From the IMG/VR virus record IMGVR_UViG_3300045988_108148: a DNA stretch of 64,000 nucleotides, one strand, 5' to 3'. The position numbers and the translations under genes were made by a program. Of this stretch, positions 2,929-47,700 are shown piece by piece; the stretch's first letter is position 1; the number at the start of each line of letters is the position of its first letter. The stretch comes from a virus. The notes below the pieces were generated by a model that was not told where the DNA came from, ran no database searches, and saw nothing but the letters and a program-made list of their open reading frames with translations.

Positions 2929-3195
2929 ATGGAAATGAATGAATCATTGTATTATGCAGAAATAAAACTGCTAACTACGTATTGCCACAACTGCCTAGAT
3001 AACAAAATGAAGGATAAAATAATGATGTTTCTGTTTAAGAAAACACTTTATGATAATGCTACTACTTTGAATCTTGCAGATGATGCAGAACAGTATTATA
3101 ATGAAATGCTGAATTTACTTGATATGAGAACGTGTAATTGTACTATTGATAACTGTAAAAATTGTAAAGATGGATATTGCGAATTATGTAAGTAA
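2929..3195 (+). CDS. Small Cys-rich protein
   Basis: The track ORF 2884..3195 starts on a non-ATG codon inside the terminator hairpin. The first ATG is at 2929 (MEMNESLYY). Contains CHNC and a C-terminal cluster CNCTIDNCKNCKDGYCELCK. Confidence 0.55.
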   Translation: MEMNESLYYAEIKLLTTYCHNCLDNKMKDKIMMFLFKKTLYDNATTLNLADDAEQYYNEMLNLLDMRTCNCTIDNCKNCKDGYCELCK

Positions 3196-11000: not shown

Positions 11001-12785
11001 AAAGGTTTATTTTTTAGAAACTTTGATAAAACTGGTTATATTGGTGGAATTGGAATGTTTTCTACTGGAAACGGATCTATATATAGAGCTTATAATGCTT
11101 ATGTAGGATGGGATAATAGTCCTTGGGATAGTGCTAATAATCTTACTGTATCTAAAGATGCATTTACTTATAAGAATAATAAAATATGGCATGCTGGTAA
11201 TGATGGTTCAGGTAGTGGTTTGGATGCTGATTTGTTAGATGGATACCATGCTGGATATAAAAATGGTGATCTTGCATTATATATTAATCTTCCAAAAATA
11301 ACTGATTTAATAAGTCAGGGTTTATTAAGATCAGATTATGAGACAGTTGGCTATCCGACAGAGGATTTTTTGATTGCATTATGTAAATGGGCAATAAACA
11401 ATTATATTGGTGAAACTTCCCATGTATTGCTACAAGGAGAGATTACTCCTGCTGTCTCGGGGTGGTGTGTTTTGGGTCTTTATGCTAATGATGGAAAAGA
11501 TAACGCAACAGGATTACCAAAATATTGTTCAGGTCAAGTAAACTTAATTAATAAAAGCTCCATATTATTCGGTTCTTATAATGGAACCTGGTATTATAAA
11601 ACATTAGTAGATACTTCTAATCTAGAAGATACTCTAGCATACTGGTATGAAAATGATGAAAACAATTCATCCACAACATGTGCAACAGGTGGTAATAGAA
11701 ATGTAATTGAATCATTAAGAAGTAAGTTTAAGAGATGCATCGCTATGCCTAGTGGTGATGATGCTGCATTAATTAGTTATTGTAATGAAGAGGATAGTTC
11801 TAAATGGCCAGATAGTACAAACATTACAATTATGAACAACCATCAAAATAGAATGGTTTATTTTCCAAAATACTATCACAAAACTATAGAGAGAAGCCCT
11901 GGCATTTGGAGAACCTATATATCTGAACAGCAAATAGATAGTAATTACATTGAAGAACCTGAAATGTTATTAGCTTCATTTGAAGGAGCGATAAACATAG
12001 AAGGTATGTTGATAAGTACAGCTTCACAGACAAGTGCAGCTTCAAAAACAATGGCTGAGTTTGTTACAGCAGCTAAAACACATGGATCTTTATGGGGTAT
12101 TGGTGATTATAGATCTCATGCAACTATAGCTAGAATGTTTTGTGCTTACTATAAGACTACTAACATTAGTACAAGTAATAGTGCTATTCCATGTTCTGGA
12201 GGTACTAAGAGATATGACTACGGTAAGACTGGTGGGACAATAGCTCTTGGTAATAAAGACGGTAAAGCTGCAGTTGTAGAAGATACAGGATATTACTCAA
12301 CTAACTTCTTAGGACTTGAAGACTGCTATTACAGTAAGTGGGAGTTTGTACAAGGAATAAACATTTTAAAAGGTAAATACGTTGTATATGACGGAGGTTC
12401 ATTCCCAGATAAGGATGTAGCAGAGCTTGAAGCAGCAGGTGCTACTAATATCAGAGTTGTGGGATATGAACCTAATCCAGCTGCAACAGCAGCATATAAT
12501 GGATGGACTAAAGCCGTAGCTCAAGGCAAATATGGTGATGTAGTTCCTACAGCACATGGTGGATCTGAAACTACTTACTATTCCGATTATAGCTGGTTTA
12601 ATCCAACAGGAAATAGAATCTTTCTACGGTCGGGTCGTTCGGCTAATGGTTCTCGGTGCGGGGTCTTCGTGGCTAGTGCTGGTAATGCTTCCTCGCTGTC
12701 GTGGGCGAATCTCGGTGCAAGATTAGCCTTTTATGGTAAGATCGTTGTAGTTGATTCAGATACATTTAAGAAAATGCAGGCATAG
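8004..12785 (+). CDS. Tail fibre protein, the DGR target (variable region at the C-terminus)
   Basis: 1593-aa ORF with repeated W-x-x-D...TG modules (NGNWWVDNRDTG, NDHWFTYDPINKVYVDTG, DNDWWIYDYDTKQYVNTG, DGYWYLWDEVDDVYVNTG). Also has SAY(D/E)xAVKxGFxG motifs, a long AExxR/SExxR coiled-coil repeat and the LSTNDYSNADKNKV fibre motif. The last approx 100 nt before the C-terminal tail match the template repeat with adenine-specific differences. Confidence 0.85.
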   Translation: MIKNNVYYEWFASITVPNPDQVGYWVDLGADSKGRIIKVYNRDIEKWIVLFDVSKDDYVPPFIGSNGNWWVDNRDTGVKATAETPYIGENDHWFTYDPINKVYVDTGIEARGLSAYDIAVKLGFKGSEQDWIDSLSKASEDAAVAALDAANKANEAADKANQAVTDIEGIVDDAIAATDKAEEIASNPPKIVDNDWWIYDYDTKQYVNTGIAAIGDAFTYKKEYPSVEAMEADWGTADVKLGEYVLINTNNVEDPDDAKVYLKTQEGWKFIVDLSGMQGIQGWSAYELAVKHGFVGTEEEWVQSLKQPALDAAAEALEAKAQVEATEKAVKEAEALRVTAEQGRVNAENTRVSNENTRISNEDNRKAEESKRVTAENARIAAETSRKEAESSRVNAESDRVEAEGARAAAEQLRANSESERNTKEKERIANEAIRVASESERVTAETSRKEEEAKRVEAETARDTAEQERESNEATRQANEAIRETQEAAREKNTADAITAVNEAKTAAQQATTNATTAANNANTQAARAKEYADNPPKVGEDGYWYLWDEVDDVYVNTGWPSSGIILKGRLNSPEELGDIVDPQLSDSYIVGTDLYFWNGTEWVNMGRFQGPQGEPGKDAELSKAAIEAVLVGEVTTHTHDTRYYTKDQTDANIKVVADDLANNYYNKSQVDSKFTSVYIFKGSVDSVEDLPTEGNVIGDVWNVRKNDTNYAWTSEGWDALGGTAELSSLTANGLMSKEDFAKLQGIEAGAQVNKIETITKRVLLNVVDKNVTIPEDIAISPDEPTNNEIIWMDTDEDYDFTFDGYSKVDADARFVHQVEGKDLSTNDYSNADKNKVDNLNSYVTSGSFVQDANNAAITLNIKDPVTDNNSNQVLTINKATSTTAGVMSAADKTKLDGLSNYDDSTITQDITNIKANKLETIEVTGTGNVITTATKNGTKIAFAKGITAMTQDASDARYVKKAGDTMTGALNITAAGYNTEVSLDGLKLETSKTSANAKGLFFRNFDKTGYIGGIGMFSTGNGSIYRAYNAYVGWDNSPWDSANNLTVSKDAFTYKNNKIWHAGNDGSGSGLDADLLDGYHAGYKNGDLALYINLPKITDLISQGLLRSDYETVGYPTEDFLIALCKWAINNYIGETSHVLLQGEITPAVSGWCVLGLYANDGKDNATGLPKYCSGQVNLINKSSILFGSYNGTWYYKTLVDTSNLEDTLAYWYENDENNSSTTCATGGNRNVIESLRSKFKRCIAMPSGDDAALISYCNEEDSSKWPDSTNITIMNNHQNRMVYFPKYYHKTIERSPGIWRTYISEQQIDSNYIEEPEMLLASFEGAINIEGMLISTASQTSAASKTMAEFVTAAKTHGSLWGIGDYRSHATIARMFCAYYKTTNISTSNSAIPCSGGTKRYDYGKTGGTIALGNKDGKAAVVEDTGYYSTNFLGLEDCYYSKWEFVQGINILKGKYVVYDGGSFPDKDVAELEAAGATNIRVVGYEPNPAATAAYNGWTKAVAQGKYGDVVPTAHGGSETTYYSDYSWFNPTGNRIFLRSGRSANGSRCGVFVASAGNASSLSWANLGARLAFYGKIVVVDSDTFKKMQA
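12626..12720 (+). repeat. DGR variable region (VR)
   Basis: Aligns without gaps to 12897..12991 (offset 271). It encodes ...RSGRSANGSRCGVFVASAGNASSLSWANLGAR. It stands out as locally GC-rich in an AT-rich gene. Confidence 0.9.
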
Positions 12786-12896
12786 TCCTGAGTAATATAG
12801 ATAATTAAATATTAATAACAAGGGCGGGATCTAAAAGAATTACTATGAGATGACTTTATAGTAAGACTGCTGTCACATTATTTCATACTTGAAAAA

Positions 12897-12991
12897 ACAG
12901 TCAGGTAATTCAGATAATGGTTCTCGATGCAGAGTCTTCATAGCTAATGCTAATAATGCATCCTCGAATTCATAGACGAATATCAGTGAAA
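12897..12991 (+). repeat. DGR template repeat (TR)
   Basis: Non-coding copy of the VR, 111 nt after the fibre stop and 143 nt before the RT start. It is A-rich where the VR has other bases. In the VR frame it has TAG where the VR has TGG. The 5' boundary may extend to 12892 (aaaaaacag versus tttctacgg). Confidence 0.9.
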
Positions 12992-13134
12992 TTTTGGAAC
13001 TAACAGATACTTTCAGATAATTACAAAAATGTTTGTTGAACTTAGATCAGCCTTACCTCTAGGTAAAAGATAACAGGTGCTTTGAAGAGACCCTAGTAGT
13101 ATTGTGCGAACGGGTCTTACCACCAAAATAGCTT

Positions 13135-14175
13135 ATGAAAAGAATAGGCAATTTATTTAACAGGATAATATCATATGAAAATCTGGTCCGGGCTGAAAAG
13201 AAGGCTAGGCTAGGTAAAACTAAAAGATACGGCGTTAAGAAATTTGACAGGAATCCACATGAAAATCTGGTCCGGTTACAAAAGGCATTAATAGAAGATA
13301 CTTATCGTACTTCGGAATACTGCGTATATACAATCATCGCCGATCGTGGTAACAAAGAAAGAGAAATATATAGGCTACCGTATTATCCAGACAGAATAGT
13401 CCATCATGCTATAATGAATGTTATAGAACCTTACCTTGTTAGTAGATTTACTGCAGATACCTTTAACTGTTTAAAAGGAAGAGGTATTCATTATGGAGTA
13501 AAGAGATTAAAAAGAGATTTAAAAGCTGATAAAGAAGGCACAAAATATTGTTTAAAATTAGATATTAAAAAGTTCTTTCCTTCTATAGATCAAGATGTGT
13601 TATATTCACAATTTGAAAAGGTATTTAAGGATAAGAAACTATTAAGATTATTACATCATGTAGTTTATTCTACACCAAAAGGTTTTCCAATTGGAAATTA
13701 CATATCTCAATTTGCAGCAAATTTGAATTTGACTTGGTTCGATAGGTGGATTAAACAAGTATTAAAAATAAAATATTATTACAGGTATTGTGATGATATT
13801 GTTATATTACACCCAGATAAAGATTACTTAAGATATTGCTTACAAGAGATTGAAAAATATCTAGCTGATAACTTGAAATTAAAAATAAAACGTAATTGGC
13901 AGATATTTCCTGTAGAAGTAAGAGGTATAGATTTTATTGGTTATGTATTTTACCACGGTCATACTTTACTCAGGAAAGATATCAAAAAGAAGTTTATTCA
14001 TAAATTAAGTTATAAAAGTAATAATAAGAGGCTAGCATCACTAGCAGCTTATTGGGGATGGTGTAAATATGGAAGCTGTCATAATTTATGGTATCGCTTT
14101 ACGAGATCTTATAATTTTAAAGATTATAGACAAAAATTATTAAGTGATGATGGAATTAAAAAAAGTACAGGGTGA
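13135..14175 (+). CDS. DGR-type reverse transcriptase
   Basis: 346 aa. Catalytic YCDD (YYRYCDDIVIL). IGNYISQ matches the (I/L)GxxxSQ signature I recall for DGR RTs. N-terminal ENLVRA and the KLDIKKFFPSID motif A region are present. Confidence 0.88.
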   Translation: MKRIGNLFNRIISYENLVRAEKKARLGKTKRYGVKKFDRNPHENLVRLQKALIEDTYRTSEYCVYTIIADRGNKEREIYRLPYYPDRIVHHAIMNVIEPYLVSRFTADTFNCLKGRGIHYGVKRLKRDLKADKEGTKYCLKLDIKKFFPSIDQDVLYSQFEKVFKDKKLLRLLHHVVYSTPKGFPIGNYISQFAANLNLTWFDRWIKQVLKIKYYYRYCDDIVILHPDKDYLRYCLQEIEKYLADNLKLKIKRNWQIFPVEVRGIDFIGYVFYHGHTLLRKDIKKKFIHKLSYKSNNKRLASLAAYWGWCKYGSCHNLWYRFTRSYNFKDYRQKLLSDDGIKKSTG

Positions 14176-16261: not shown

Positions 16262-16939
16262 ATGATAAAGTTAGGAAGTACAGATATAACAAATGTAATG
16301 TTGGGAACAACTAAGGTGGACGCAATATTTCTTGGCAATACGAAAGTGTATCCAAATCCACCTGTAGTAGAAGGAGTATATGTATATCACGTGGATAAGA
16401 AATTTTATACTTTTCCTGAATTTCAAAAATTATCCAATACTGCTATATCACAAGTTCTTGGATTTGCTATTATAGATAATCAAGGTTCGTTTTTATTGCC
16501 ACCTAGAGTAAATCTATCTAATGGCTACAGGTGGTGTCCTGAAAATTTTGATACTTTCCTAGTACCAGATGTTGGAATTGGTGTTGATGATATTAATGGT
16601 AGACAAAATACAGAAATAATGCACGATACCTTTCAAAATGTTGCTGGATCAAATGAGTATGCTGCTGGATATGCATATCGTTTTACTCCTGTACCGATTG
16701 GTACTAATTGGTATTTACCATCTATTGGTGAACTTATTATAATTTACATGTATATGTCAGAATTGAATGATTGGGTATTTGATACATTTGGCTTTTCTTA
16801 TTTTGGTTATAAAGCTCTTTGGTCTTCCACACAACAAGATGCTACTACAGCTTGGCAATTAGATATTTCTGGTAGTGCATACAATACAGTAGCAAAGAGA
16901 ACCCTCAACGCAGCACTCCCAGTAATTAAATTAGGTTAA
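16262..16939 (+). CDS. DUF1566-like (C-type-lectin-fold-related) putative receptor-binding protein
   Basis: 225 aa. NWYLPSIGELIIIY ... ALWSSTQQDATTAWQLDISGSAYNTVAKRTLNAALPVIKL fits the remembered DUF1566 pattern W.LP(S/T)..EL ... WSST ... AW ... G ... K ... (V/I)(R/K). Confidence 0.5.
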   Translation: MIKLGSTDITNVMLGTTKVDAIFLGNTKVYPNPPVVEGVYVYHVDKKFYTFPEFQKLSNTAISQVLGFAIIDNQGSFLLPPRVNLSNGYRWCPENFDTFLVPDVGIGVDDINGRQNTEIMHDTFQNVAGSNEYAAGYAYRFTPVPIGTNWYLPSIGELIIIYMYMSELNDWVFDTFGFSYFGYKALWSSTQQDATTAWQLDISGSAYNTVAKRTLNAALPVIKLG

Positions 16940-32745: not shown

Positions 32746-35700
32746 ATGGAAACATCTATATTAGACAAATACAATGCTGGTTTAATTCCTTCTAAAACCA
32801 ATGCCACTACTGCCGCTATACGGCAAGTAAATGCACAGCATTCCCCTTTAACAAAAATTAAAACAGGGTACGATCGTGAATTGGAACAAACTCCAATTGA
32901 TGATTATGAAGAAATGTATCTATTGGACAAAGAAAATCCAGAGGAAACTCTTAAAGATAAGAGCTACTTAAAAGATGCATGGACCACTTTTATGAATAGT
33001 AGAGATCAAATCAATCTAATGTCGGAAAGAGCTAAATTAGCTAAGGATATAAATCCCGTATTAGATGATATTGATTATGAATTGAATTTTCTTAGTGATA
33101 AGCAAAAGCTTAAAAATCTTGAAAATACTATTCCTACTTTGGATGAGAATTCTGAAGAATACAAAAATGCAATATCTGAATATTTTCAACTTCAAAGAAC
33201 ATTAGCAGATAGACAAGAGCAATACGATAGCATCTTGTCTAAATATGGTGAAAAAGAGGGTGATAACATTGATGCGAGAATTGAATATCTAAGTAATTCT
33301 AGAAAATCGTGGGAAGAAGAAAGATCTAAAGTAAATGAAGAAATAAATAATATATACTCTAACTTACGAGAAAGATCTGAAAATTATACACCGTCTTCTG
33401 AATTTAGAATAAAAGAACAAAGAGCTCAAGACAAACCTTGGTATTCCCCAGATTATTTCTTATACGCTGGTCCAGGTTTAACAGGTTCTTCTATGGCAAC
33501 TGTTAATGGTTATATTGCAGATGCTTTAGCTACTGGAGCTTTATGGTTAGGTAGACACTATGCTACTACTGGAGCATTGAACGCTGTCCCTGGAATTGGT
33601 GCTGCATCTAATCTAATTGGGTGGGGTAGTGCAATTGCAGCTACTGCAGCTAGTGTTGCTGGTAATATATACAGTAGACATAGAGAATCTTTAGCTCAAG
33701 TATATGGTGCGTATAGATCTAGAATTGAAGATAGTTTAAAGGAACAAGGTATTGACATTAAACAATATGCTGAAATTGGTAGAAACCAGTTAAAACAACA
33801 AGACCCCAATATAGATGTTTCTAAGATCTCTGATGATGAGATAATAGATAGAGTTATATCTGGAGAGATAAACATAAATGATGCAACTCTAGCAAATGCT
33901 AAAAGATCTTTAAAAGATGGATTAGAAAGAGTTTATGATAACAACATGGCATTATCTGCTATGGATGTTGCTCAATCTGCTTTAGTATTTGCACCTCTTG
34001 GTAAAGCTATGGGTAAAATAATAACAGCTCCAATTAAAACTGCTTTAAACCCATTGTTAAAAACAGGTACGAAATTAAGCGAAGCTGCAGCAAGTAAATA
34101 TAACAAACTTATAGACGCTTATACTGGGTTTAATGCTAGACTTGCATACAATTCCCCAGTAAAAAATGCTAGTTTACAAGCTGCTAAAGCACTTGGTAGA
34201 TTAGGTTTCTCTGCTACTGGAGAAGCATTTGAAGAAGCTAACCAAGACATATTTGATTATGATTATATTTCTGGTAAGTATGATAAAAAGTCTAGCAGTG
34301 TCTTTCAATCCTTAATGGGGTTAGCTGATGCCAACTATCGTACTGCAAAGATATTATCTGGAATAGATACTGAATCTGAATTAGCAAATGATCCACAATT
34401 TTGGAATGATGTAAAAGGTGGTTTTGCATTAGGTTTATACATGGGTGGACCTACAATTGCTTATCATTCTGGGTTAAAGACTTACAAAGACATGACTGCC
34501 AACTCTTTTGTAAGAGACGTAGTTGCAGATCACATTGGTAAAAAAGATGCAATGATCAAAGCTATGTCCTACTCTGAGATGGCAAACAAAAAATTAAACT
34601 ATCAACAAAATGTACTTGATGTACTTGAAAACTACAAGTACAATCTACCAGAAGGTATCACTGAACAAGATTTAAATGATGAGATAGCTACTGCAAATAA
34701 TATCTTTAGTTTATCTAAATCTAAAGTAAATCAGAACATTGGTAAAACTATTGGTTATAATCCTGGGACTACTGAATATAATACTTTAATTGGGTTGCAA
34801 CACTTGGCAACAATAGATGCACAAGAAGCACTTGACAATGCCAATCAAGCACAAGAGGCAGACAATGCTTTCTATACTACTTTGGAAAATGATCAAATGT
34901 TAAATCATTATTCTCCAGAAGAGAAGCTTACTGCTGTTGCATTAACTAAGTTAAACATTCAAAAGCAAGCATTAGAACAATTAAAAACAGCACTCGAATC
35001 TAAGCCAGAAGAAAATCAACAAAAGTTTGGTATAACGAATGAGTCAAATGCTGTTGGTAAATCTATTTCAAAAGAAATACCTAATATATTAAAAGACATA
35101 GATGCTAAACTAAATCAATTATCAGAAGGTACTAGATTCAGTTCAAACTTCATAGCCACTCCAAATTTGGTTAACAAAGGTATTGATAGTTATGTCAACA
35201 CAATGATTGCAAATCATGACCTTTTGGTAGCTGAGCATAAGATGAACGAAATATTCGGCAATACTTTGGAAGATGGCAAACTTATAAACTTCAACAACGC
35301 TTCTAATGAATCAAAAAAGAATATAGGTAAAAAGATAAAAGAAAGAATTGATAATTATATAAACAATTCAGATGAAGCATCAAAGATAGTAGAAGAAAAT
35401 GCAAAGGATGTTGTTGAAGCAGAATCTGCAAAAGAAATGTCTAGAGAAGCAGCTAATCAAAGTGATGATCAACAACCTATTACTAACAACGAAACTCAAG
35501 TAGATAATCAAGTAGCTACTGAAGTAGAGCAAGAAAAGGCAACGTCTCCAAAAACTCCTATTATGGATGACAGGGCTACTTCTGACATTGATACTAAAAT
35601 ACCAGTAGTAGAGAAGGAAATAAAAGAAGATGAAGAATTTCCTACTAAAGGATTAGAAGAGTTAAGTAAGGAGTTTGAAGAAACCTTAGCCAAAGTAAAA

Positions 35701-38700
35701 GAAAAAAAACAAGAAGATACTGAAAGGAAACCTAAACCTGAGCCTAAACCAGTTGTTGAAACTCAAGAAGACGAAGAGGATGAAATAGAATTTGAGCGAG
35801 CTGATGAAAAAGCTCTGATAGATCTTGCAAATTCTGAAGCTGTTTCAGACGAGGATGATAAAAAAGTATCTGAAACTTATGAAACTTCTAATCCTGAAGT
35901 AACTGAAGAATCTCAAGTAAAATGGGCCCGTAAGAAGATTGCTACAGAATCTAAAATGAACAGAAGAGCAGATATGGACTCTGAGACTAGAGATTTGGAT
36001 GAATCTTTAGAAATTGAGGAAATGGTACAAGATAAAGTATCTCATACACTGTTCTTTAATCCTGATGCTACAACGCCTATTTATCCTGGTACCAAGCCAG
36101 GCAAGGAATTAGCAGAGAGAATAAAAGATCCAAACTTTTTTAATGATAGTTTCTGTGAGTTTGTTATAAATAAAGATTATACAGAAAAGGGGCATAAACC
36201 ATATAAAGAAAATGATCCTAGTACATATGATTCTGCATCTATAATAATGTTAATTCATCATGGCACTGGCGATTATGCAATGGCTTTGAAAACTCCTTCT
36301 GGAGCTAGAACTTTCTTAGCAGCAAAATTAGCTAGCATACCTAAAGAAAGGCTTACAGAAGAGGATATTAATCTTATTAATAATGCTAATGATTTATCTA
36401 TAGCAGATTTACGTAGATTTAGAAATGCAGTAATTTCTACAATAGAGTCTGCGACAAATGATGAAGCTGTAGTACCTAGCACAATAGTTAGAACTAAAGG
36501 AATACCTAATGTTGTTAGAAAAGATGGTAGAGCTGTATTCAGACCAATACACGAAGTAAAAGGCTTACAGATACCAACAGAAATTACTGAGATTACTCCA
36601 GAAAATGTAACATTTGGTATAAGTGATGGTATTGTAAAAGATTCTGATATAATAGGAGCCAATGGTGAAATGTTGCCAGGTAAAGGTGGTAGTGGACAAT
36701 TGTTTATTTATCCACCAAAATCTAGTACTTTATCAAATCAAATGTTGCCATTACAATTAACTCTTCAAAGATTTGACAGGAAGCAAGCTGAGTTTTTAGC
36801 TGACTTGTTAATCAATTATGGCACTAATACTAACTCTGAATATAGAGATACAGGAGTTATTGCTGGAGAATTAATTGACTTTATGGTTAGATTTGGAGAT
36901 GCTACCAAAGTAACCACTGCAGATAAAACATTTGATTGGTTAAAAGAAAAGCAATTGTATATTGATGATAAATCCAATCTAATAGTTGGTGAAAAAACAT
37001 TCAATATAGGCAATTTATCTACTCAGGATAAAAAAGACATAGTTGAAGCTTTAATGGGATTCCATTGGCGTGTAGCTAGAAAGAATTTCTTCAGCCCAAT
37101 AAAAGAAGCATTACCTTCTGTATATGATTATTTTAACAATAATTCTGTTGATTTGCTTGATATCATTCCAGGTATATCTCTTACTAAGGATGATTTCATT
37201 TCTTCTACCCCAGTTTATACTATGGGTGTGTTAGAAAAAGCTGGTATAATAAGAAGTGACTTAGATGATCAACTATTTAAAGATTCTTTCGCATATGCTG
37301 AAGATGTTCAAAAGATACCAAGAAAGATCAATAATCCTGAAGTAAAAGAAGCTGTTGAAAATAAAGCCAGTTCGTTACCAAATATTCCTAGCACCCCAGA
37401 ACCACAGACAGAGGTTACTGAAGATGTTACGACTTCTGAAGTTACAACTCAAGATGATTCTTACATAAAGGAAATAACTAATGATGGAGAAATAGATCCT
37501 TTGAGTTTGGGAATTGATGAAGATTTTGATGTACCTTTTCGTAAAGTTGCAGGAAATATATCAGAAGTAGTAACTCCAGAAGAAATTCAATGGTTTAGAA
37601 ATAAATTAGGATTACCAGAAGATTCTTTACATATCGTTGAAGATGCTATTGCACTTGGTGGTAATGAGTATGCTATGGGTCTTGTTAGAAAAGATTCTAC
37701 CATACTGTGGAAAGGTGCAGAACGTGGTACATTGTATCATGAAGCATTCCATAGAGTATCATTATTAACTATTTCTCCAAAGGAAAGAAAGAAAATTTAT
37801 GAATTCTATAGAAATAGAACTGGTTTTGTTGGAAGTGATAAACAAGTAGAGGAAGCTTTAGCAGAAGACTTTAGGCAGTATATGCTAAATAAAGTAGATC
37901 CTGAATTAAATCTTCTTAAAAGAGCTTGGAAAGCTATTAAGAATTTCATAAGTAAATGGGTTTGGAGAACCGATACTAGTATTGATAATATTTTTAATAG
38001 AATCGATTCTGGTTATTACAATAGATCTAAACAAGATTCGGCTGCTGTAAATGAATTTCTTGCTGCATATAAAGGTGCAGGTGCTCCATTTAAAATAAGA
38101 AACCACAAATTTAAAAACATTACTAACACACAATTCAAAGAAACTGTAAATTCACTTGTAGGTGCTTTATTTACATTAAATAACATAAGACTACGTGATG
38201 ATTTGCAAAATCTTAATTATGGAGTGTTAAAAGCTGCATTAAAACCAGAAATAACAGCAAAGTTAGTTGAAAAAGGAACTATTACTAAGGAGCAAGGGGA
38301 AGTTAGAAATGAAATATACAATACATTTGATACTGTATTTAAACCAGAAATTATAAATAAATTAAATGAGTATCAAATAAGAGCAGTGGATAAGCAGGAA
38401 AATATTGATGCAGAGATTGATGAGAAAGCAGTTGGTAATGATGTAGGTGATCAGATGGCTAACTACATTCAAGAACAATTGGCTGTTTCAGTTAAAGATA
38501 ATGCTCTTGCATCTATAAAGATTTTCATTGCAACAATGCCTAGGACAGAATTTGTCATGAAACAAAAAACAAATCCTGATGGCACTGTGACTCAAGTACA
38601 AGGTGTTGCTGCAATAAAGAGTCCTGTTACAGGCTTACCTCTAATGGTTGACTTTGATAAATCTTGGAATACAATTATTAATGAAATTCACTCTGAAAAT

Positions 38701-41700
38701 ACATTCAAAGGAATGATGGACAAGAGTGCAAAACTTGCTAAAGTAACACCATTATTTAAAACTTTGTATAATGAGTTATACAAGATTACAAATGAATATG
38801 TACAAAAGAAAGGTATTCAAGAGGACGAAGTTCAAAAAATAGCAAGAGAGAATTTACAAACTCAGTTTAGAAACACATTCCGTAAAGCTAGACACAAGTT
38901 AGTTGGTATTTTATCAGAAAAAGTTGAAGATGAAAACGGTAATGAACAAACTAACTTGTATGTTAAAGATGAAAATGCAAATAAAGTATCTAAAAATATA
39001 TTAGAGGGTTGGAATTACAATTTAATAACAAACAGTGGTGTATTAGATACTTCTGATAACTTATTTAAAGCAAAAGTTAGTGAGTCTGAAGAATTCGTAG
39101 CTAGAGAAATCAACAATGAATTCAATAAAATAATAAAGATTGTAGAAAAATACAAAACTACACCTAACAAGAAACTAGTAAATGGTCAAACTTATAAAGA
39201 GTATGTACCAGAGAAGTTAATTACTATTAAGAATAAGATAGTTGATTTACTTAATAAAGTTGGAGTAGAAATTGATTTAGAATCATTAAACTCCTTCCTT
39301 ACTAAGGAATATTATAATTCAGATTCTACTGAGTCATTAGTTTCAATGTTATCAGATAGATCCAATAAAGGTATATATTTCTTCTTTAATTCTAAAGTAA
39401 AGGACTTAGCAAAGATTCAAGAAAGTGGCGTAGTTCCTGGTCAATATAATAGAAGTATTACAAAATATTATGATGACTCTAAATTCTTAGGAAGACTTGC
39501 TGAAACATATGCAATGTTGCATCCTTCTTCTGATGAATTATCAGTATTATCTACTGATGGTAAATTGTTGTATCCTATATCAGAACACAATTATTTGTCT
39601 GACATGGTTCAAAGATTGGATAATGACCCAGCAACAGTAGAAGCACTTACCAAAGTATTATACAATACTGGTAATAATACCAATCCTAATTACTTCAAGG
39701 GTTCTGTATTGTTAACAAATTTATATAATAATGCAGATGCTAAAGGTAAAATAGGATTTGAAACTCTTGTTTATTTTAAAGAACAAGGTAGTGCAGATAA
39801 AGGACGTAAGTACACAGAAATATCCCCTCTTGAAGACTATATTGCTAAGATGACATTCACTAGAGCAGGTAGAATTATCTTACCTACTATGGGTGATTCT
39901 CAAACATATAATACATTATATGGTACTGCAATAAACAACTTTAAAAATCCATTTGACGTAAGTAATGGTGAAATAAAATTCGATGCTCAAATTCTTAAAA
40001 GATTTATTAATTACTTTGAAACTGAATTAGATACCATTGAATTTAATTACAAGAATGAAAATAATTTAACTGAGGAACAAAAAGTAAAGAACTATGATAC
40101 AGGAAATAGAAATGGTTATAGATTCAGATACTTCAATGGATTCTTTAAATTGAAAGAAAGACCTACGTTAAATGGTATTGAATTTGAAAAAGATTTTTCG
40201 AACTTTAACGAAGCATTAGACCTAGCAGAAGATCTTGGTGGTAATGAATATGGAACTTCTATTATTTCTCAAATAAGAAATAATTGGAATAAGTTCAGTA
40301 ATGCTGAAAAAGCAAATCTAATGAATAACTACCTGTGGGATGCATTTAAAGATGAGTTAAATTATGCACAAGAATTAGGTATAATTAAATGGGATGGTAA
40401 TAAAATAGCTAGTGTAACGAGTTTAGCATTGCCCCAGAAGGCATTAGAAGAAGCATCATCACATTATAAAAAATCTGCAACAGTTTCTAATTATAGCGAA
40501 AATCTTGGTGCTGCTGAAATGATTGGTAATTATTTTGCTAATACCATTTCTTCAGTAATTGAATTTGAGAAACTTTTTATAAAAGATCCAGCCTACTACA
40601 AAAATCCTGTAGATAAAATTAAACGTTTACGTGAGGTATTATCCACTGGTGTTACTCCAAGAATAGACTACGAAGAAGGAAATACAATGGCAGATCTCAC
40701 TGAAGTGAACGTAGGTACACTATCAGATAATGTTATCGTAAGTAGACAAGCTGATCAAATTGCAGAGTATGCTAAAAGATCTGCGGCTATACGCTTGCTT
40801 CAGGAAATGCACAATATGACATTAGATGAGGCAATTAGAACTTACGATAGTTCTGAAGCTTTACCTCAGGATGTAGAAGATGCAGCTAATCTTATAGTAA
40901 GAGATAAATTTAATGGTTATCTTAATCCAAAAGGTAAAGTAAACCAAACTGATGCCACAGTACTAATATCTCCAGAGTTTTATAAAGAACTAGTACGTAG
41001 AGTAGATGGATGGACACCGCAAGTAGCAAAAGCATTTGACTTACTTAATGATCCAAATGCAGATCTTGAAGCAGATATGGATACGTATGCAGAAGCATTG
41101 GCGGTTACATTGAAACCTTTGAAATTCATGTATTTTGGTGATCATTACGATGTAGGTGCTAAAAGGGATATACCAATATTTGATAAGATGGCTATGTTCC
41201 CTGTACATCGTATCTTCTCTACTGGGGACATGGGTAAAGTATTGGAAGTTATGCAATCACGTAATATCCATATGCTTGCTTTTGATTCCGCAGTAAAAGT
41301 AGGACAAAGGGCTAAAGAAGTTAAATCAAGAATCTATAAAGATAAGACTAATAAAGAAATAGACATGGACAGTCTGATGTCAATGCCTACTCACAAACAA
41401 TCTTTGGCTAACTTTAGACGTCAGTTAATTACTGATCCTCACCATGCAGAAAGACAAATGTTTGTATCTCAAGCACAAAAAGCTGCCATGGGTAATATCA
41501 GAAGTGCATGGAAATATACTACACCAGATGGTAAAGTATATAATGGTGATGAGTTGATTAATAATTTTAACGGTGCTCACAATGCCATTACTGAAGCTGG
41601 TAGAAGAGAGATAGAAAGAGATTTTGGTATTACTCCAGATAAACCTCAAGTAAGTGTACAAAGATTTGCTGAAATTATGCAACGCAAAGCTTTAAGTTCA

Positions 41701-44700
41701 AACATGAATGACAATGTTATTAATGGTTTGGATGTTGAAAATGGTGAAACTGTTGCACCAATTTCTGGTTTATCTGATAACTCTTGGATAGAAAGTGGTC
41801 TTATATCAATGTTGAATAAGTCAATTGTTGATACTAACTTACCAGGTGGTATGTTTATTCAAATGTCTTCAATATTGTACAATAGAATTGCTGTAACTTC
41901 AGACGCACAAAATGAAAGAAAGCTAAGATTTGCAAACACTGATGGTACTATGGATTGTGTTATTTCAATTAACTTATTGAAACACATAATTCCTGATTAC
42001 GATAAAAAGACTTTCAGTGAAGCTAAAAAGTGGTTGATAGATCATGATATTGTTGGTCCGAATTCTAAAGCTCTTGCAATGGGTTATCGTATCCCTGCTC
42101 AAGGTCAAGCATCAACTGCAGCTCTTAAAGTGGTAGATTTGTATCCTGAACAAATTGGTGATACTATTACATTACCTGATGAATTTACATCTCTTACTGG
42201 TTCTGACTTCGATATTGATAAATTGTTCGTTGCTAGATATAACTATGATAAAAACGGTAATAGAATCAAATTTGAGACTAAAGAAGATTACACTAACAGA
42301 CTCAGAGAAGCTGGCTTAGATGATGAAACCATAGTTCGTAAAGTCTACGAAAGATATAATGGTAAAACTGATTTTGAAGCTAATTCAAAGGAAGCAAATG
42401 AAAATATGCTTCTTGATATGTATATATCAGTTATTTCTAACCCACTGAACTTTGCAGAAGCTAGACAACCACTAGATACAGTAACCGATTACTTAAAAGA
42501 TACTATTCTTAAAGAAGTAGATACAATAACTGGTCAAGGTAAACGTACAAGCAAATCCCAACTGTATTATGCCACTCCAGCATTCCAGAGTAGAACTAAG
42601 GCAGAGTTGAATGGTGGTAAATTTGGTATTGGTCCATTTGCATTAGCAAATGCTCATCAAGTTCTTACTCAATTGGTCAAATTAAGATTTAAACCAAATA
42701 AAATTTTAAGAGACTATGGTATAAGCAATTTGTATGGTATCCAGAGTAATGATAGAAATAAGATTAATATCCTTGACTGGTTATCAGCATTAATCAATGC
42801 TCATGTGGACGTTGCAAAAGATCCATACATCATTCGATTGAATGTAAGGAAGTTAACATTTAATATGACTAACTTCTTGATAAGATCTGGTAAAGGTGAA
42901 AGTACATTCTATTTCTTACCTCAACAAATATTAAAAGACTTTGCAATAGAATACGATAAATACTCTGGCTTTTATAATGTAGATACACAAAACAAAAATC
43001 CTGAAAGTCTAGCATATAGAACTATTTGGAATACATATTTTGAGAAAGCAAAATCTTTATCTAAAGGTAAATATGATCAGCTTTTAGACTTTTTGAATGA
43101 TAAAGGTGTAGGTGTTAAACAAAGAGAAAAGATGTTCGATGTCAATTACTTAAAGAAGCAATTGAAAAAAGAAGAAACATTTGATTGGTACTACAATCAG
43201 TTGCTCATTATGAAGACTTATCAAGAACTTAATCCGTTCTCAAGATCTTTGTCTGAATTAACTACATTGTCTCAAATTGATACTAAGCGCTTTGGTAATA
43301 ATTTTGGTTTACAAAGTGCATTCTTGGATAAATGGAAACAATTCATGGTAGAGCAACAAGTATTTGAAGATCCTATAAAGGTATTCTCAAATACATTCTT
43401 AGGTAAGAAAATGCAAGATGCATTAATATTCCCTAGAATTGCCTTCCAAAACACAATGATTAGACTTACTCCAGAATTTGAAAACTTAAGAACATTAATA
43501 GAATTCTATACTAAAGGTTATGCAATTAGTGATGATACATACATTAATAATATTACCAGAAGTATGGAAGCTACGTATAAAGCTGGTTTCTTTAATAAGT
43601 ATTTAGCTGAAAATGGAATAAAGCTCAGTAGTTTGTTAGGTGGTCCAAATAGTATCTCTAAGAGATTGGATAGAATTAAATCTGATGTAAGAAGTGGCAA
43701 ATATCCAGATTTATTAAGTAGTGATGGTTCATTTGAAAATGTACTTATTAATAACATCTTTAGTAGACCAAAGGAAGATACAACTGAATTAAATGGTCCT
43801 GATTTTATTGCTTACAAACCAAACAAGAGTGGTGATAATAACTTAGAAAATGAGATCATTAGAGCTTGGGAGGAATTGTGGGATAGTGATTATCAGGAAA
43901 TAAGAGATTTTGCAAAAGATCTTGCATTGTATGCTTTCTATACTTCTGGTGATGCATTTGGTAAGAATAATATCTTTAGATATGTACCTAATTCAATCAG
44001 AGAGGAAATAGGTTATTTTGATTACATTAGAGATTTAGAACGAAATCCTGATGATGCAGTTAAAGATATTAAAGTATTCCAAGTAATAAAAGACTTGTGG
44101 TGGAACGACCACGTAGTTCCTACTATTGATTATTACGTATTAGATTCTAGTAGAGAAACTATTGAAGAAGAAGGTAGACCTGTATACAGGGCGTTACCTC
44201 ACGAAGATAGTGGTTTTACTGTAGTAAACAAGAAAGGAGTAGAAGTACAAATTCCTGGCATCATATATGATAAAAAGTCTCAATCTATAATTTCATTCAA
44301 TCAAAATGGTCAACCTATATATCCACCATTTAAAAAAGTAAAATTAGATAGAAATAATGATCCTAGAACTACGTTCCTGTATGAGTACATAGGCATTAAT
44401 GAAGATGATGCCCCAGTGTACAGATTGATTAACAAGAAGGGAATGAGTTATAGAGGAAACATATTAATTGAGAGTGGTAGAAATAGATCTGTTCTTAAAT
44501 ACAACAATGTTGTACCAAAGGGTTATGAAATTATGCCAGAAGAACAAATAACTTGGGTTACTGATCTTACTCCGGTAAAAGCTAGCTTACAAGCAAAGGC
44601 ATTTAATCAAGCTGGTGAATTTAATACAGACATGCTTGCTAATATACAGCAAACGGTTAAAACTCAACAAGCAACTGAACCATTATCTTATCAAGAATGG

Positions 44701-47700
44701 GTTAAAGACTATCAAACTCAAAAAGGTGAAGCTGATGCAGAAGCGGCATATCAACAATATCTGGATAACTTTGAGTACAGTAGATCACAAGAAACACAAG
44801 ATATAAATAACTCTGCAAATACTGATAATGATCCTGCTAATTTTAATGATGCTTCATCAAGTAAAGCAATAATAAGTAGTAATGCAACAATTCTCACAAA
44901 CGAAGAATTAAGGAAACTTAAACCTTTTGTAGGGAATAACCCTAGAATTGGAGTAGCTTCTGAATATACTGATCCCGCATTCTTTAGTAAACAGATAATA
45001 AGGGTTTTAAATGGTGAAGAAGTGATATCAGATAAATTTGGTAGAACTTTTTCTGGAACGGATTTCAATGCTTTATATATAATTACAAAGCACGATGGTC
45101 TTCCAATTGAGAACTTGTTGAAACACAAAATACCTAAAATAATTCATTTTAGTATAACTGGATTGGGTGGTACAAAATATGAGCCAGGAGTAATGAAACC
45201 TAATGATTTACTTGATAGAATTCAAGCTATGTTAAAATTAGGACTTGACCCAGAATCTGTTACAATACGAATAGATCCTATAGTTCCTGGTGTAACTTCC
45301 ACAAAAATGATAGAGAATATTGTAAAGCGTGCTTCAGAAATGGGCATTAAAACAATACGTTTCTCTATAATGGATCAATACAAGACTACCAAAAAGTACA
45401 TGGAGGAATTAGGATACGATTATTCTAAGTTCTATGATGGTGTATCTATGCACGCTAGAGATGACGTACGTGAACAAATAGAGACATTTATGGACTCTCT
45501 TATAGATAAATATGGAGTTACGATGTCTACTTGTGCAGAACCTCTTTCATCGAATAGTAGAATTAAACGTGATGCATGTTTGTCCGTAAATGCTGTAAAC
45601 AACATGTTAGGCACAAATGTACCTCAATCTGCTGGTACAGGTAAACGAAAACTATGTTCTTGTTTTGGTGGTAAAACTGACTTATTGAAATATGATAATG
45701 TGTGTGCATCTAGCTGTGCTTACTGTTATGCTCATCATAATAATGATAACATTCTTAAATATTATAATGAAGATGGTTCATTAAAAGATATACCTCTTAC
45801 CAGAGTGTCTAAAATTGATGAACAGTCTCCAGTACAACTAAATGCATCTGAACAACCCACTACACCTGCAGTAGAACAACCAGCAATTACTGACACTACT
45901 AAAGGATTTTCTCTAGAACCGTTTATAAATAAAATATTTCCAGATTGGAAATCAAAACTTCCAAATTTGCCAGAGGAATTAGCTGCTGAATTCATGTCAT
46001 GGAGTATTGTACCTGGGATAGATGAGTGGTCAATAAAAGATAGAATTGAGAAATATAAAGATTTTGAAATCGAAGAAGAAACACGGGAAGCAATAAAACG
46101 TGGGGATAAAGAAGGAATTGTTCAAGGTATTGCAAACACAATTTCTTATGAATTGGCTAAGGATGGAATCACAGAAAGAGATCTATTTATAAATTTATTT
46201 GGTCAAAGTTATGTAGATAAGGTAGACAGATATGTTGCTGAAATCAAAGCCGAAGTTCAGAAAGAAAAAGATACTACTAAGGAATTCTTAGATTATGCTA
46301 ATCAATTTGGTTTTACTGATGAAGCTGCTTCACTTGCAAAAGACTTACCAAAAGCAGTTGAAGAAGCTAAGAAAGTAGAAGAAGAGTACGTATTTACATT
46401 TAATGATGGGTTTAAGATCAATTTACCATTCTCATTAAATGATCAACAGAAATCAGCTCTATATGAATTAGAGAAGTTTATTGAAGATGGTGGAACTGAA
46501 ATTACTTTATCTGGTTATGCTGGTACAGGTAAATCTACTATCATTGGTATATTTAGTAAGTGGTTGAATAATAGAATTGGTAGAGGCAACATTGTATATA
46601 CTGCTCCTACTCATAGAGCAAATGTTATAACTAAACAAAATAATCTTAATGCTAATGTATATACGCTTTCTGCTCTATTTGGGTTTACTCCAGATACAGA
46701 TATAGCAATGGAACAAGGTTCATTGGATTTAAGAGAACTGGAGTTTAGAGCCAAGAATCAAATGAAATACGAACCAGGTCAATTAATTATCATTGATGAA
46801 GCTTCAATGGTACAAGATGGCTTGTATGAATATATTCAAGAAATTGTAGCTAAACATAACGGTAGTGTAATATATGTTGGGGATTCTGCACAATTGAGAC
46901 CTGTAAAATCAGATCATATTTCTAAAGTGTTTACATCTGATGGAGTACCTCAAATAACTTTAACCAAAGTAGAAAGAACTGGTGATAATCCTATTTTAAA
47001 AGAAGCCACCAGACTTAGACGAGGTGAAGGATTGAGTTACCAAACTGATATAAATGATAAAGGTCAAGGAGTATTGTACACTTCGGATGATGCAATTATA
47101 GATAAAAACCTGAAACAGATTGTTACTTCTGAAGAGTTCAATGCTGATCCTTTACATTTTAGAGTATTGACTGCTACAAATGCTGCAGCATCTACATATA
47201 ATTCAAAGATTAGATCTTTGAGATATGGAAAATTTGCTAAACCATTTGTAAAAGGTGATATTATAATGGGGTATTCAAACAAACTCAGAAAACCCGATGG
47301 ATCTTATAGATTAATAAACTCTGGAGATTATATAGTTCAAAGTGTAAAGGATACCAACATTAAATTCAAAACCGATAAAGGGGATATAGAATTTAAAGCA
47401 TTCAATTTATCAATTAGACCGACTGGTGGTACTATTATGGATGACTTTCAACTTACTGTAATTGACAAAAATGAACCAGATTCTAAGCTATTTGAAGTAG
47501 TAGAATATAAAGATAGATTGTGGAAAATGGCTAAAGAAGCTAAACAAAATGGGCAAATATCTAAATATAGAGATTTAGTTCAAATGGCGTACAATGTTGA
47601 CAATGAACTGAATATTACCAAGAATTTGGAAGATAACCAAGGCAGGTTAAAAATTAGAAAAGCAATTGATTATGGATATGCACAAACTGTTTGGAAATCA

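Follow-up and report, generated by a model that had tools for sequence, protein, structure and literature searches.

An avd-less diversity-generating retroelement, very probably intact, at the 3' end of a putative tail-protein gene in a crAss-like phage

Does the end of a very large putative tail-protein gene in a crAss-like phage carry a diversity-generating retroelement (DGR), and is that element still intact? The question is raised by the viral record IMGVR_UViG_3300045988_108148, of which a stretch of 64,000 nucleotides was analyzed (hereafter the window, with positions given on one strand, 5' to 3'), and for which an initial annotation, made from the sequence alone, had proposed a DGR hypermutating the tip of a 1593-residue tail fibre. 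We conclude that the locus is very probably an intact DGR having the layout of target gene, variable repeat (VR), template repeat (TR) and reverse transcriptase (RT) gene without avd, in a crAss-like phage of the Suoliviridae. That conclusion, which upholds the initial annotation with regards to the nature of the element, is carried by adenine-specific mismatches between the two repeats, by the location of the VR in the 3'-terminal part of a large tail open reading frame (ORF), by a non-coding TR and by a DGR-type RT encoded on the same strand (Table 1).

The VR and TR were recovered by an independent repeat finder as a gap-free pair of 95 nucleotides having 75% identity, in which 23 of the 33 TR adenines were mismatched as compared to one of the 62 other positions (Fisher p 3e-13). 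Within the 91 positions that had originally been aligned by hand (12630-12720 with 12901-12991), the computed comparison gave exactly the counts claimed, again without gaps and with 23 mismatches, of which 22 were at TR adenines (15 A>G, five A>C and two A>T) and one was a T>G (12698 in the VR, 12969 in the TR), leaving nine template adenines unchanged, as had also been estimated. The mismatches were hence concentrated at template A and not distributed over the four bases. Synonymous third positions were also changed, for example from TCA to TCG four times, which indicates mutational input and not selection alone. The VR ends 65 nucleotides before the stop codon of the target ORF and is found within its last 54 codons, and the TR is intergenic and on the same + strand as the target gene and the RT gene. 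As the TR reads TAG in the target frame where the VR has TGG, a feature that was correctly noted before, it is non-coding. The peptide quoted for the diversified segment, YYSDYSWFNP followed further on by SGRSANGSRCGVFVASAGNASSLSWANLGARLAF, was likewise correct, and the AAT-rich nature ascribed to the template was borne out by seven in-frame AAT codons, each giving access to 15 possible residues. Further TR codons (GAT, CAA, ATA, ACG and ATC) allow 4-5 possible residues each, which by arithmetic, for about 12 positions, amounts to some 10^11 possible peptides. No second TR copy and no second VR was found in the window upon scanning both strands with an adenine-masked TR.

The RT gene starts 143 nucleotides after the end of the TR and encodes the YCDD and IGNYISQ motifs, with coordinates and strand as originally given. 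The protein matched Pfam RVT_1 (E 2e-16) as well as phrog_1423, 'reverse transcriptase' (E 4e-107), and its best relative of solved structure was the DGR RT of a Bordetella phage (8ub7_A, 328 residues; E 8e-44, residues 2-326), with a group II intron RT reaching E 2.5e-15 in the same comparison. The catalytic residues, namely the motif-A Asp and the YxDD motif (YCDD here, YMDD in 8ub7), were kept, as were the IGxxxSQ motif and the equivalents of R74 and I181, two residues to which a part in adenine mutagenesis is ascribed in the Bordetella enzyme. A 116-residue ORF overlapping the RT stop codon was conserved in close crAss-like relatives only, and it was rejected as a candidate accessory gene because it does not occur next to the distant RTs of the same clade.

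We next asked from which phage the element derives and whether its VR has been rewritten in related genomes. A 3-kb query spanning the cassette displayed 91.1% identity over 96% of its length to cr10_1 (Canhaevirus, NC_055875) and 95.2% identity over 64% to cr50_1 (Cohcovirus, NC_055868), both being crAss-like phages of the Suoliviridae (Boorivirinae) originating from human faeces. Judged from this nucleotide similarity in the cassette region, the window is assigned to a crAss-like phage of the Crassvirales, family Suoliviridae (delta group). Using the adenine-masked TR as a pattern, 58 IMG/VR contigs were retrieved, to which the two RefSeq genomes were added. The pattern-based VR set, comprising 49 distinct alleles, demanded an exact non-adenine core, and the census was therefore repeated purely by position, giving 53 distinct VR alleles. 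This census in related contigs, which was used instead of read mapping, located the variation to the TR-adenine sites, as had been predicted, with differences from the TR at 1184 of 1802 adenine sites and at 29 of 3233 other sites and with a spectrum of 799 A>G, 245 A>C and 140 A>T. The 53 copies of the TR were almost invariant, with a mean column entropy of 0.04 bit, and all of the 22 columns exceeding 0.9 bit among the 49 alleles were TR adenines, located at repeat positions 11-86 (12636-12711 in the window). Repeat positions 87-101 of the VR were invariant in all alleles, having fixed-site differences from the TR.

The window, cr10_1 and cr50_1 were about 99% identical upstream of the VR and through the TR and spacer, with the VR differing at many sites. 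Genome pairs that differed at 4-9 of 1015 flank bases had 9-18 of 95 VR bases different, and VR and flank divergence were uncorrelated (r = -0.03). Near-identical flanks together with very different VRs imply that the VR is rewritten much faster than the genomes diverge, and as VR divergence was saturated even between near-identical genomes, the turnover should be recent in the lineage. These comparisons indicate that the DGR has recently been active in this phage lineage, and it would presumably be so in the window genome itself.

Some further features of the allele series may be mentioned here. Among the 29 non-adenine VR differences, 14 were T>G, 12 of which occurred at a T directly 3' of a TR adenine. 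The recurrent T>G sites were the third base of AAT codons, with 12698 in the window being one of them, and this class was seen at homologous VR positions in 11 of the related contigs. The VR of cr50_1 carries an in-frame insertion of three nucleotides, GCTGCCTCC, as compared to GCATCC in the TR (the counterpart of 12689-12690 in the window), and the VR-TR spacing of that phage is 273 instead of 271. Polymorphisms in the TR were few and mostly A/G transitions, such as that at 12926-12927, where the window has GA, cr10_1 has AG and most others have AA. In distant DGRs of the same RT clade, eight loci had two or three VRs for one TR, located in tandem small ORFs with VR-TR spacings of about 190, 570 and 950 nucleotides, unlike the single large target found here.

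The region between the TR and the RT gene encodes a conserved structured RNA. We compared it to the corresponding regions of distant loci, being those with RTs 50-56% identical to that of the window, fetched with flanks and each having its own TR/VR pair. RT-17 (RF03020) scored above its gathering threshold in 10 of 19 such loci, in all ten cases just upstream of the RT gene. Common to the TR-RT spacers, and to the Rfam families RT-17 and RT-18, both of which like the window element are found immediately upstream of an RT gene, were a hairpin P1, a linker rich in A and a stem P2 around UUGGUA (which reads UAGUA in the window), a hairpin P3 and GAA. P1 had compensatory changes, with GC in 12 loci and AU in seven, and P3 was a short hairpin of different sequence in almost every locus. 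P2 appeared in 14 of 20 independently folded spacers as compared to 26% of flank-shuffled controls. The global fold of the TR-spacer RNA was no better than that of shuffles, and RNAalifold, when applied to a MAFFT alignment of the spacers, returned solely hairpin P1, because the P3 region of variable length was misaligned. The window spacer is a divergent, sub-threshold member of the RT-17/RT-18 type having the same helices. By analogy with the spacer region of the Bordetella phage BPP-1, it probably recruits the RT and gives the priming site.

With regards to the target, the + strand ORF of 1593 residues was confirmed, and the label of tail fibre given to it stands on weaker evidence, as it comes from PHROG family names: the protein matched tail protein phrog_5302 (residues 1252-1576, E 5e-43) and tail fiber phrog_3904, and no Pfam match was obtained for it. 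The proposal that its tip has a C-type lectin fold of Mtd type was only partly sustained. No PDB relatives of the tip were found at the sequence level, neither with a single sequence nor with a profile search. Homologues of the last 299 residues were then collected and aligned for an AlphaFold model, having a low mean predicted local distance difference test score (pLDDT) of 55.5. A Foldseek search with that model gave on top three chains of the DGR variable protein TaqVP (E 1-3e-6, best 1.2e-6; probability 1.0; TM-score 0.44-0.47), then five Mtd entries, followed by formylglycine-generating enzyme and many C-type lectins. A second model, covering the last 199 residues and built on a deeper alignment of 82 sequences, was no improvement (pLDDT 58) and again had TaqVP on top, at an E value of 2, which is not significant. 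The models thereby give moderate support for placing the variable residues on a C-type-lectin fold. Close homologues of the last 299 residues (11886-12785 in the window) were mostly found in proteins of about 470-500 residues on other large contigs, and the diversified C-terminal module hence seems to have been combined with N-terminal parts that vary between phages.

Taken together, an intact DGR at this locus would be expected to function as follows. Transcription would cover the TR together with the structured spacer RNA that follows it, whereupon the RT would bind the spacer RNA and, probably priming from it, copy the TR into complementary DNA (cDNA), with misincorporation opposite template adenines. 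That cDNA would take the place of the VR in the 3'-terminal part of the tail-protein gene, where the invariant sequence bounding the VR on its 3' side would presumably be the homing signal, by likeness to BPP-1. About 12 codons would thereby be randomized in a C-type-lectin-like tip, through which the phage could change its binding to a Bacteroidota host.

How firmly can the element be considered intact? Several observations weigh against this. The window spacer scored below the Rfam gathering thresholds over its full length, both for RT-18 (RF03021; 29.8 bits, threshold 41.3) and for RT-17 (26.3 bits, threshold 40.4), and both models of the tip were of low confidence (pLDDT 55-58). No G+C-rich initiation of mutagenic homing (IMH) sequence of the kind found in BPP-1 was present at the 3' boundary of the VR, and folding of the DNA that follows the VR gave nothing better than shuffles (z -1.0), with no significant hairpin. 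Scans for sigma-70 promoters and terminators gave counts at the level of chance, none of which could be assigned. The Bordetella RT needs the accessory protein Avd, for which two adjacent and ten other small ORFs of the window gave no Pfam or NCBIfam match. About a quarter of DGRs are without an accessory gene (PMC7290462). Finally, six relatives had lost parts of the cassette with the VR still being diversified, and with deletion end points that were mostly different: TR, spacer and RT were lost in four of them, the second half of the TR together with the spacer and most of the RT in one, and the TR alone in one. As such close relatives have deleted TR and/or RT, the cassette must be dispensable, and its loss has occurred repeatedly within the lineage.

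These deletions, and the lack of a recognizable Avd, would agree with the view that the element is a relic, in which the VR was diversified in ancestors and retrohoming no longer occurs in this genome. So would a relative (L007, positions 2982-3076) in which the TR itself had A-to-N substitutions over repeat positions 16-64, with both ends being TR-like, which could be due either to self-targeting by mutagenized cDNA or to an assembly chimera, and so would the G at 12926, the adenine at which the window TR is off the consensus. We nonetheless consider a relic improbable, as the RT ORF is of full length with all catalytic residues present, the TR is one position off the population consensus, the helices of the spacer RNA are intact, and even genomes that are nearly identical show saturated divergence in the VR. 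The remaining alternative, that the RT is that of a different retroelement, be it a group II intron, a retron or an abortive-infection/defence system, and that the repeat is an ordinary duplication under positive selection, finds some agreement in weak NCBIfam similarities to such RTs and in the RefSeq note 'Retron-type reverse transcriptase' on the cr10_1 and cr50_1 homologue, but is effectively refuted by NCBIfam scores far below the cutoffs (103 versus 300 for group II intron RT/maturase, 63 versus 235 for retron St85 and 67 versus 200 for Drt3a), by a DGR RT being by far the best solved relative, by mismatches that are adenine-specific also at synonymous sites, by the stop codon in the TR, and by the finding of no intron or retron RNA family in the window.

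Table 1. Positions in the window of the DGR features and of deletions found in related contigs
Feature	Position	Strand	Remarks
Target gene, putative tail fibre/tail protein, 1593 residues	8004..12785	+	ORF list, PHROG matches
Variable repeat (VR)	12626..12720	+	Homologous to TR over the whole 95 nucleotides, gap-free; 24 mismatches
Diversified VR core	12636..12711	+	22 highly variable nucleotide positions, about 12 variable codons; actively diversified
VR 3' boundary (IMH-like)	12712..12726	+	TCGGTGCAAGATTAG; TR counterpart TCAGTGAAATTTTGG at 12983-12997
Template repeat (TR)	12897..12991	+	Non-coding, 33 adenines; in-frame TAG at 12973-12975
AG sites of TR	12899, 12903, 12912, 12931, 12933, 12942, 12974, 12985		
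VR counterparts of AG sites	12628, 12632, 12641, 12660, 12662, 12671, 12703, 12714		
Structured spacer RNA, Rfam RT-17/RT-18 type	13049..13138	+	Rfam match, covariation, independent folds
Spacer P1 hairpin	13053-13066		
Spacer outer stem	13076-13079 / 13121-13124		
Spacer P2	13087-13093 / 13112-13118		Encloses UAGUA, P3 and GAAC
Spacer P3 hairpin	13099-13107		
DGR reverse transcriptase, 346 residues	13135..14175	+	IGNYISQ 13690-13710, YCDD 13786-13797
Counterparts of deletions in relatives	12785-14146, 12884-14134, 12956-14065, 12852-12986		

The allele series also displayed a dependence on the neighbour of the template adenine. At the eight TR adenines directly followed by G, the 49 VR alleles had G in 97% and had kept A in 2%, with the reservation that positions at the repeat boundary may be fixed differences that were never overwritten. 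TR adenines before A, C or T had been kept as A in 35-73%, with all four bases seen, synonymous sites included. Four of the eight AG sites are synonymous third positions (in TCN, GGN and GTN codons), and protein-level selection therefore cannot explain the G found there. A first set of independent DGRs belonging to the clade had G at 78 of 85 AG sites, and among 92 TR/VR pairs (75 distinct TRs) the interior AG sites were G in 90% and A in 4%. At four-fold degenerate sites of those pairs, AG had been changed to G in 48 of 50 cases versus 7 of 79 in other contexts, where many of the synonymous AG sites are homologous and the number of independent sites is perhaps a handful.

For the Bordetella RT, published work shows misincorporation to depend most on the base directly 3' of the template adenine, with misincorporation of C dominating, at about 30% overall (PMC12875486; bioRxiv 10.1101/2025.08.18.670894). 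We found no literature report of a near-deterministic outcome. It can tentatively be proposed, as an idea that we hold to be quite possible rather than probable, that the RT of this avd-less, RT-17-type DGR clade almost always reads a template A before G as G (a 'masked G'), so that only A before A, T or C becomes randomized. If true, Gly, Arg and Trp scaffold codons (TAG becoming TGG) would be written with A in the TR and yet be constant in the protein, and the template would be partitioned by context into fixed and variable adenines, well beyond the graded effects seen with the Bordetella RT. Should the rule be mutational, the TR could therefore have TAG at an invariant Trp, and A at Gly and Arg codons, without retrohoming becoming mostly lethal. 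Another explanation, in which the RT would re-copy the previous template base (AG giving GG and AC giving CC), was rejected since A before C became C in 2-3%.

How does this DGR relate to those already described? A target gene-VR-TR-RT layout without avd has been published for crAssphage LMMB (Morozova et al. 2020, PMC7290462), and DGR cassettes have been reported in Suoliviridae by Yutin et al. 2021, as cited in PMC11054128. The DGR of the window is hence of a known kind, new neither as a kind nor in its family, and since publications already cover the system, the layout and the occurrence in Suoliviridae, it adds little as a discovery. The LMMB element of the Intestiviridae shares with that of the window its location on one strand, a crAss-like phage tail protein as target, an AAT-rich TR and many relatives with incomplete cassettes, but differs in having a target of 486 residues instead of 1593 and in IMH and IMH* reported to be identical, whereas the 3' ends of VR and TR in the window differ at fixed positions. 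Judged by architecture alone, the 'lineage 3 / CLec3' DGRs of Wu et al. 2018, as described in PMC7290462, also match the window in their layout without avd. The cr10_1 and cr50_1 elements are the closest, with 91-95% nucleotide identity across the cassette, one or two of 95 TR positions different, a spacer about 99% identical and RTs 96-99% identical to that of the window, such that the VR allele is the sole difference. The BPP-1 system (Mtd, Avd, TR and bRT) has in common with the window the mutagenic, adenine-specific transfer of a TR copy to the 3' terminus of a tail-fibre gene, an RT homologous over its full length (8ub7) with the adenine-mutagenesis residues kept, and a structured RNA between TR and RT. 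The window element differs from BPP-1 in the lack of Avd and of a G+C-rich IMH or cruciform, in AAT instead of AAC codons, in a TR directly following the target gene, in TR adenines before G that behave as G, and in a spacer RNA of another family, RT-17/18, whose members it resembles at 26-30 bits, which is under gathering.

The cassette would possibly allow receptor-binding specificity to be redrawn within a few generations, which helps to explain how crAss-like phages may persist alongside changing surface structures of Bacteroidota. In the RefSeq entries of cr10_1 and cr50_1, the RT alone is annotated, as retron-type, with the VR, TR and target not marked as a DGR and with the cr10_1 homologue of the target gene given as a hypothetical protein, and the annotation of these closest reference genomes consequently misses a functional DGR. 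The 53 VR alleles set against one TR, together with some 90 additional TR/VR pairs from the RT clade, constitute a population-scale error spectrum of the RT. In this spectrum the base 3' of a template adenine seems to have a strong influence, a dependence that could be used in the design of synthetic DGR templates. We regard the AG context rule and the Avd-independence of the RT clade as open leads worthwhile to pursue.

Two other parts of the window deserve mention. An ORF of 225 residues located two genes downstream (16262-16939) had a weak match to Lcl_C (DUF1566-type, lectin-like; E 3e-4, below the Pfam cutoff), and was considered as a second DGR target. It had no match to the TR and no detectable similarity to the tip of the target protein, and was rejected as being unlike that tip. 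Positions 32746-48015 are occupied by a single ORF of 5089 residues, with ORFs of 1337, 653 and 637 residues before it and one of 1386 residues after it, and giant-protein blocks of this sort are typical of crAss-like phages.

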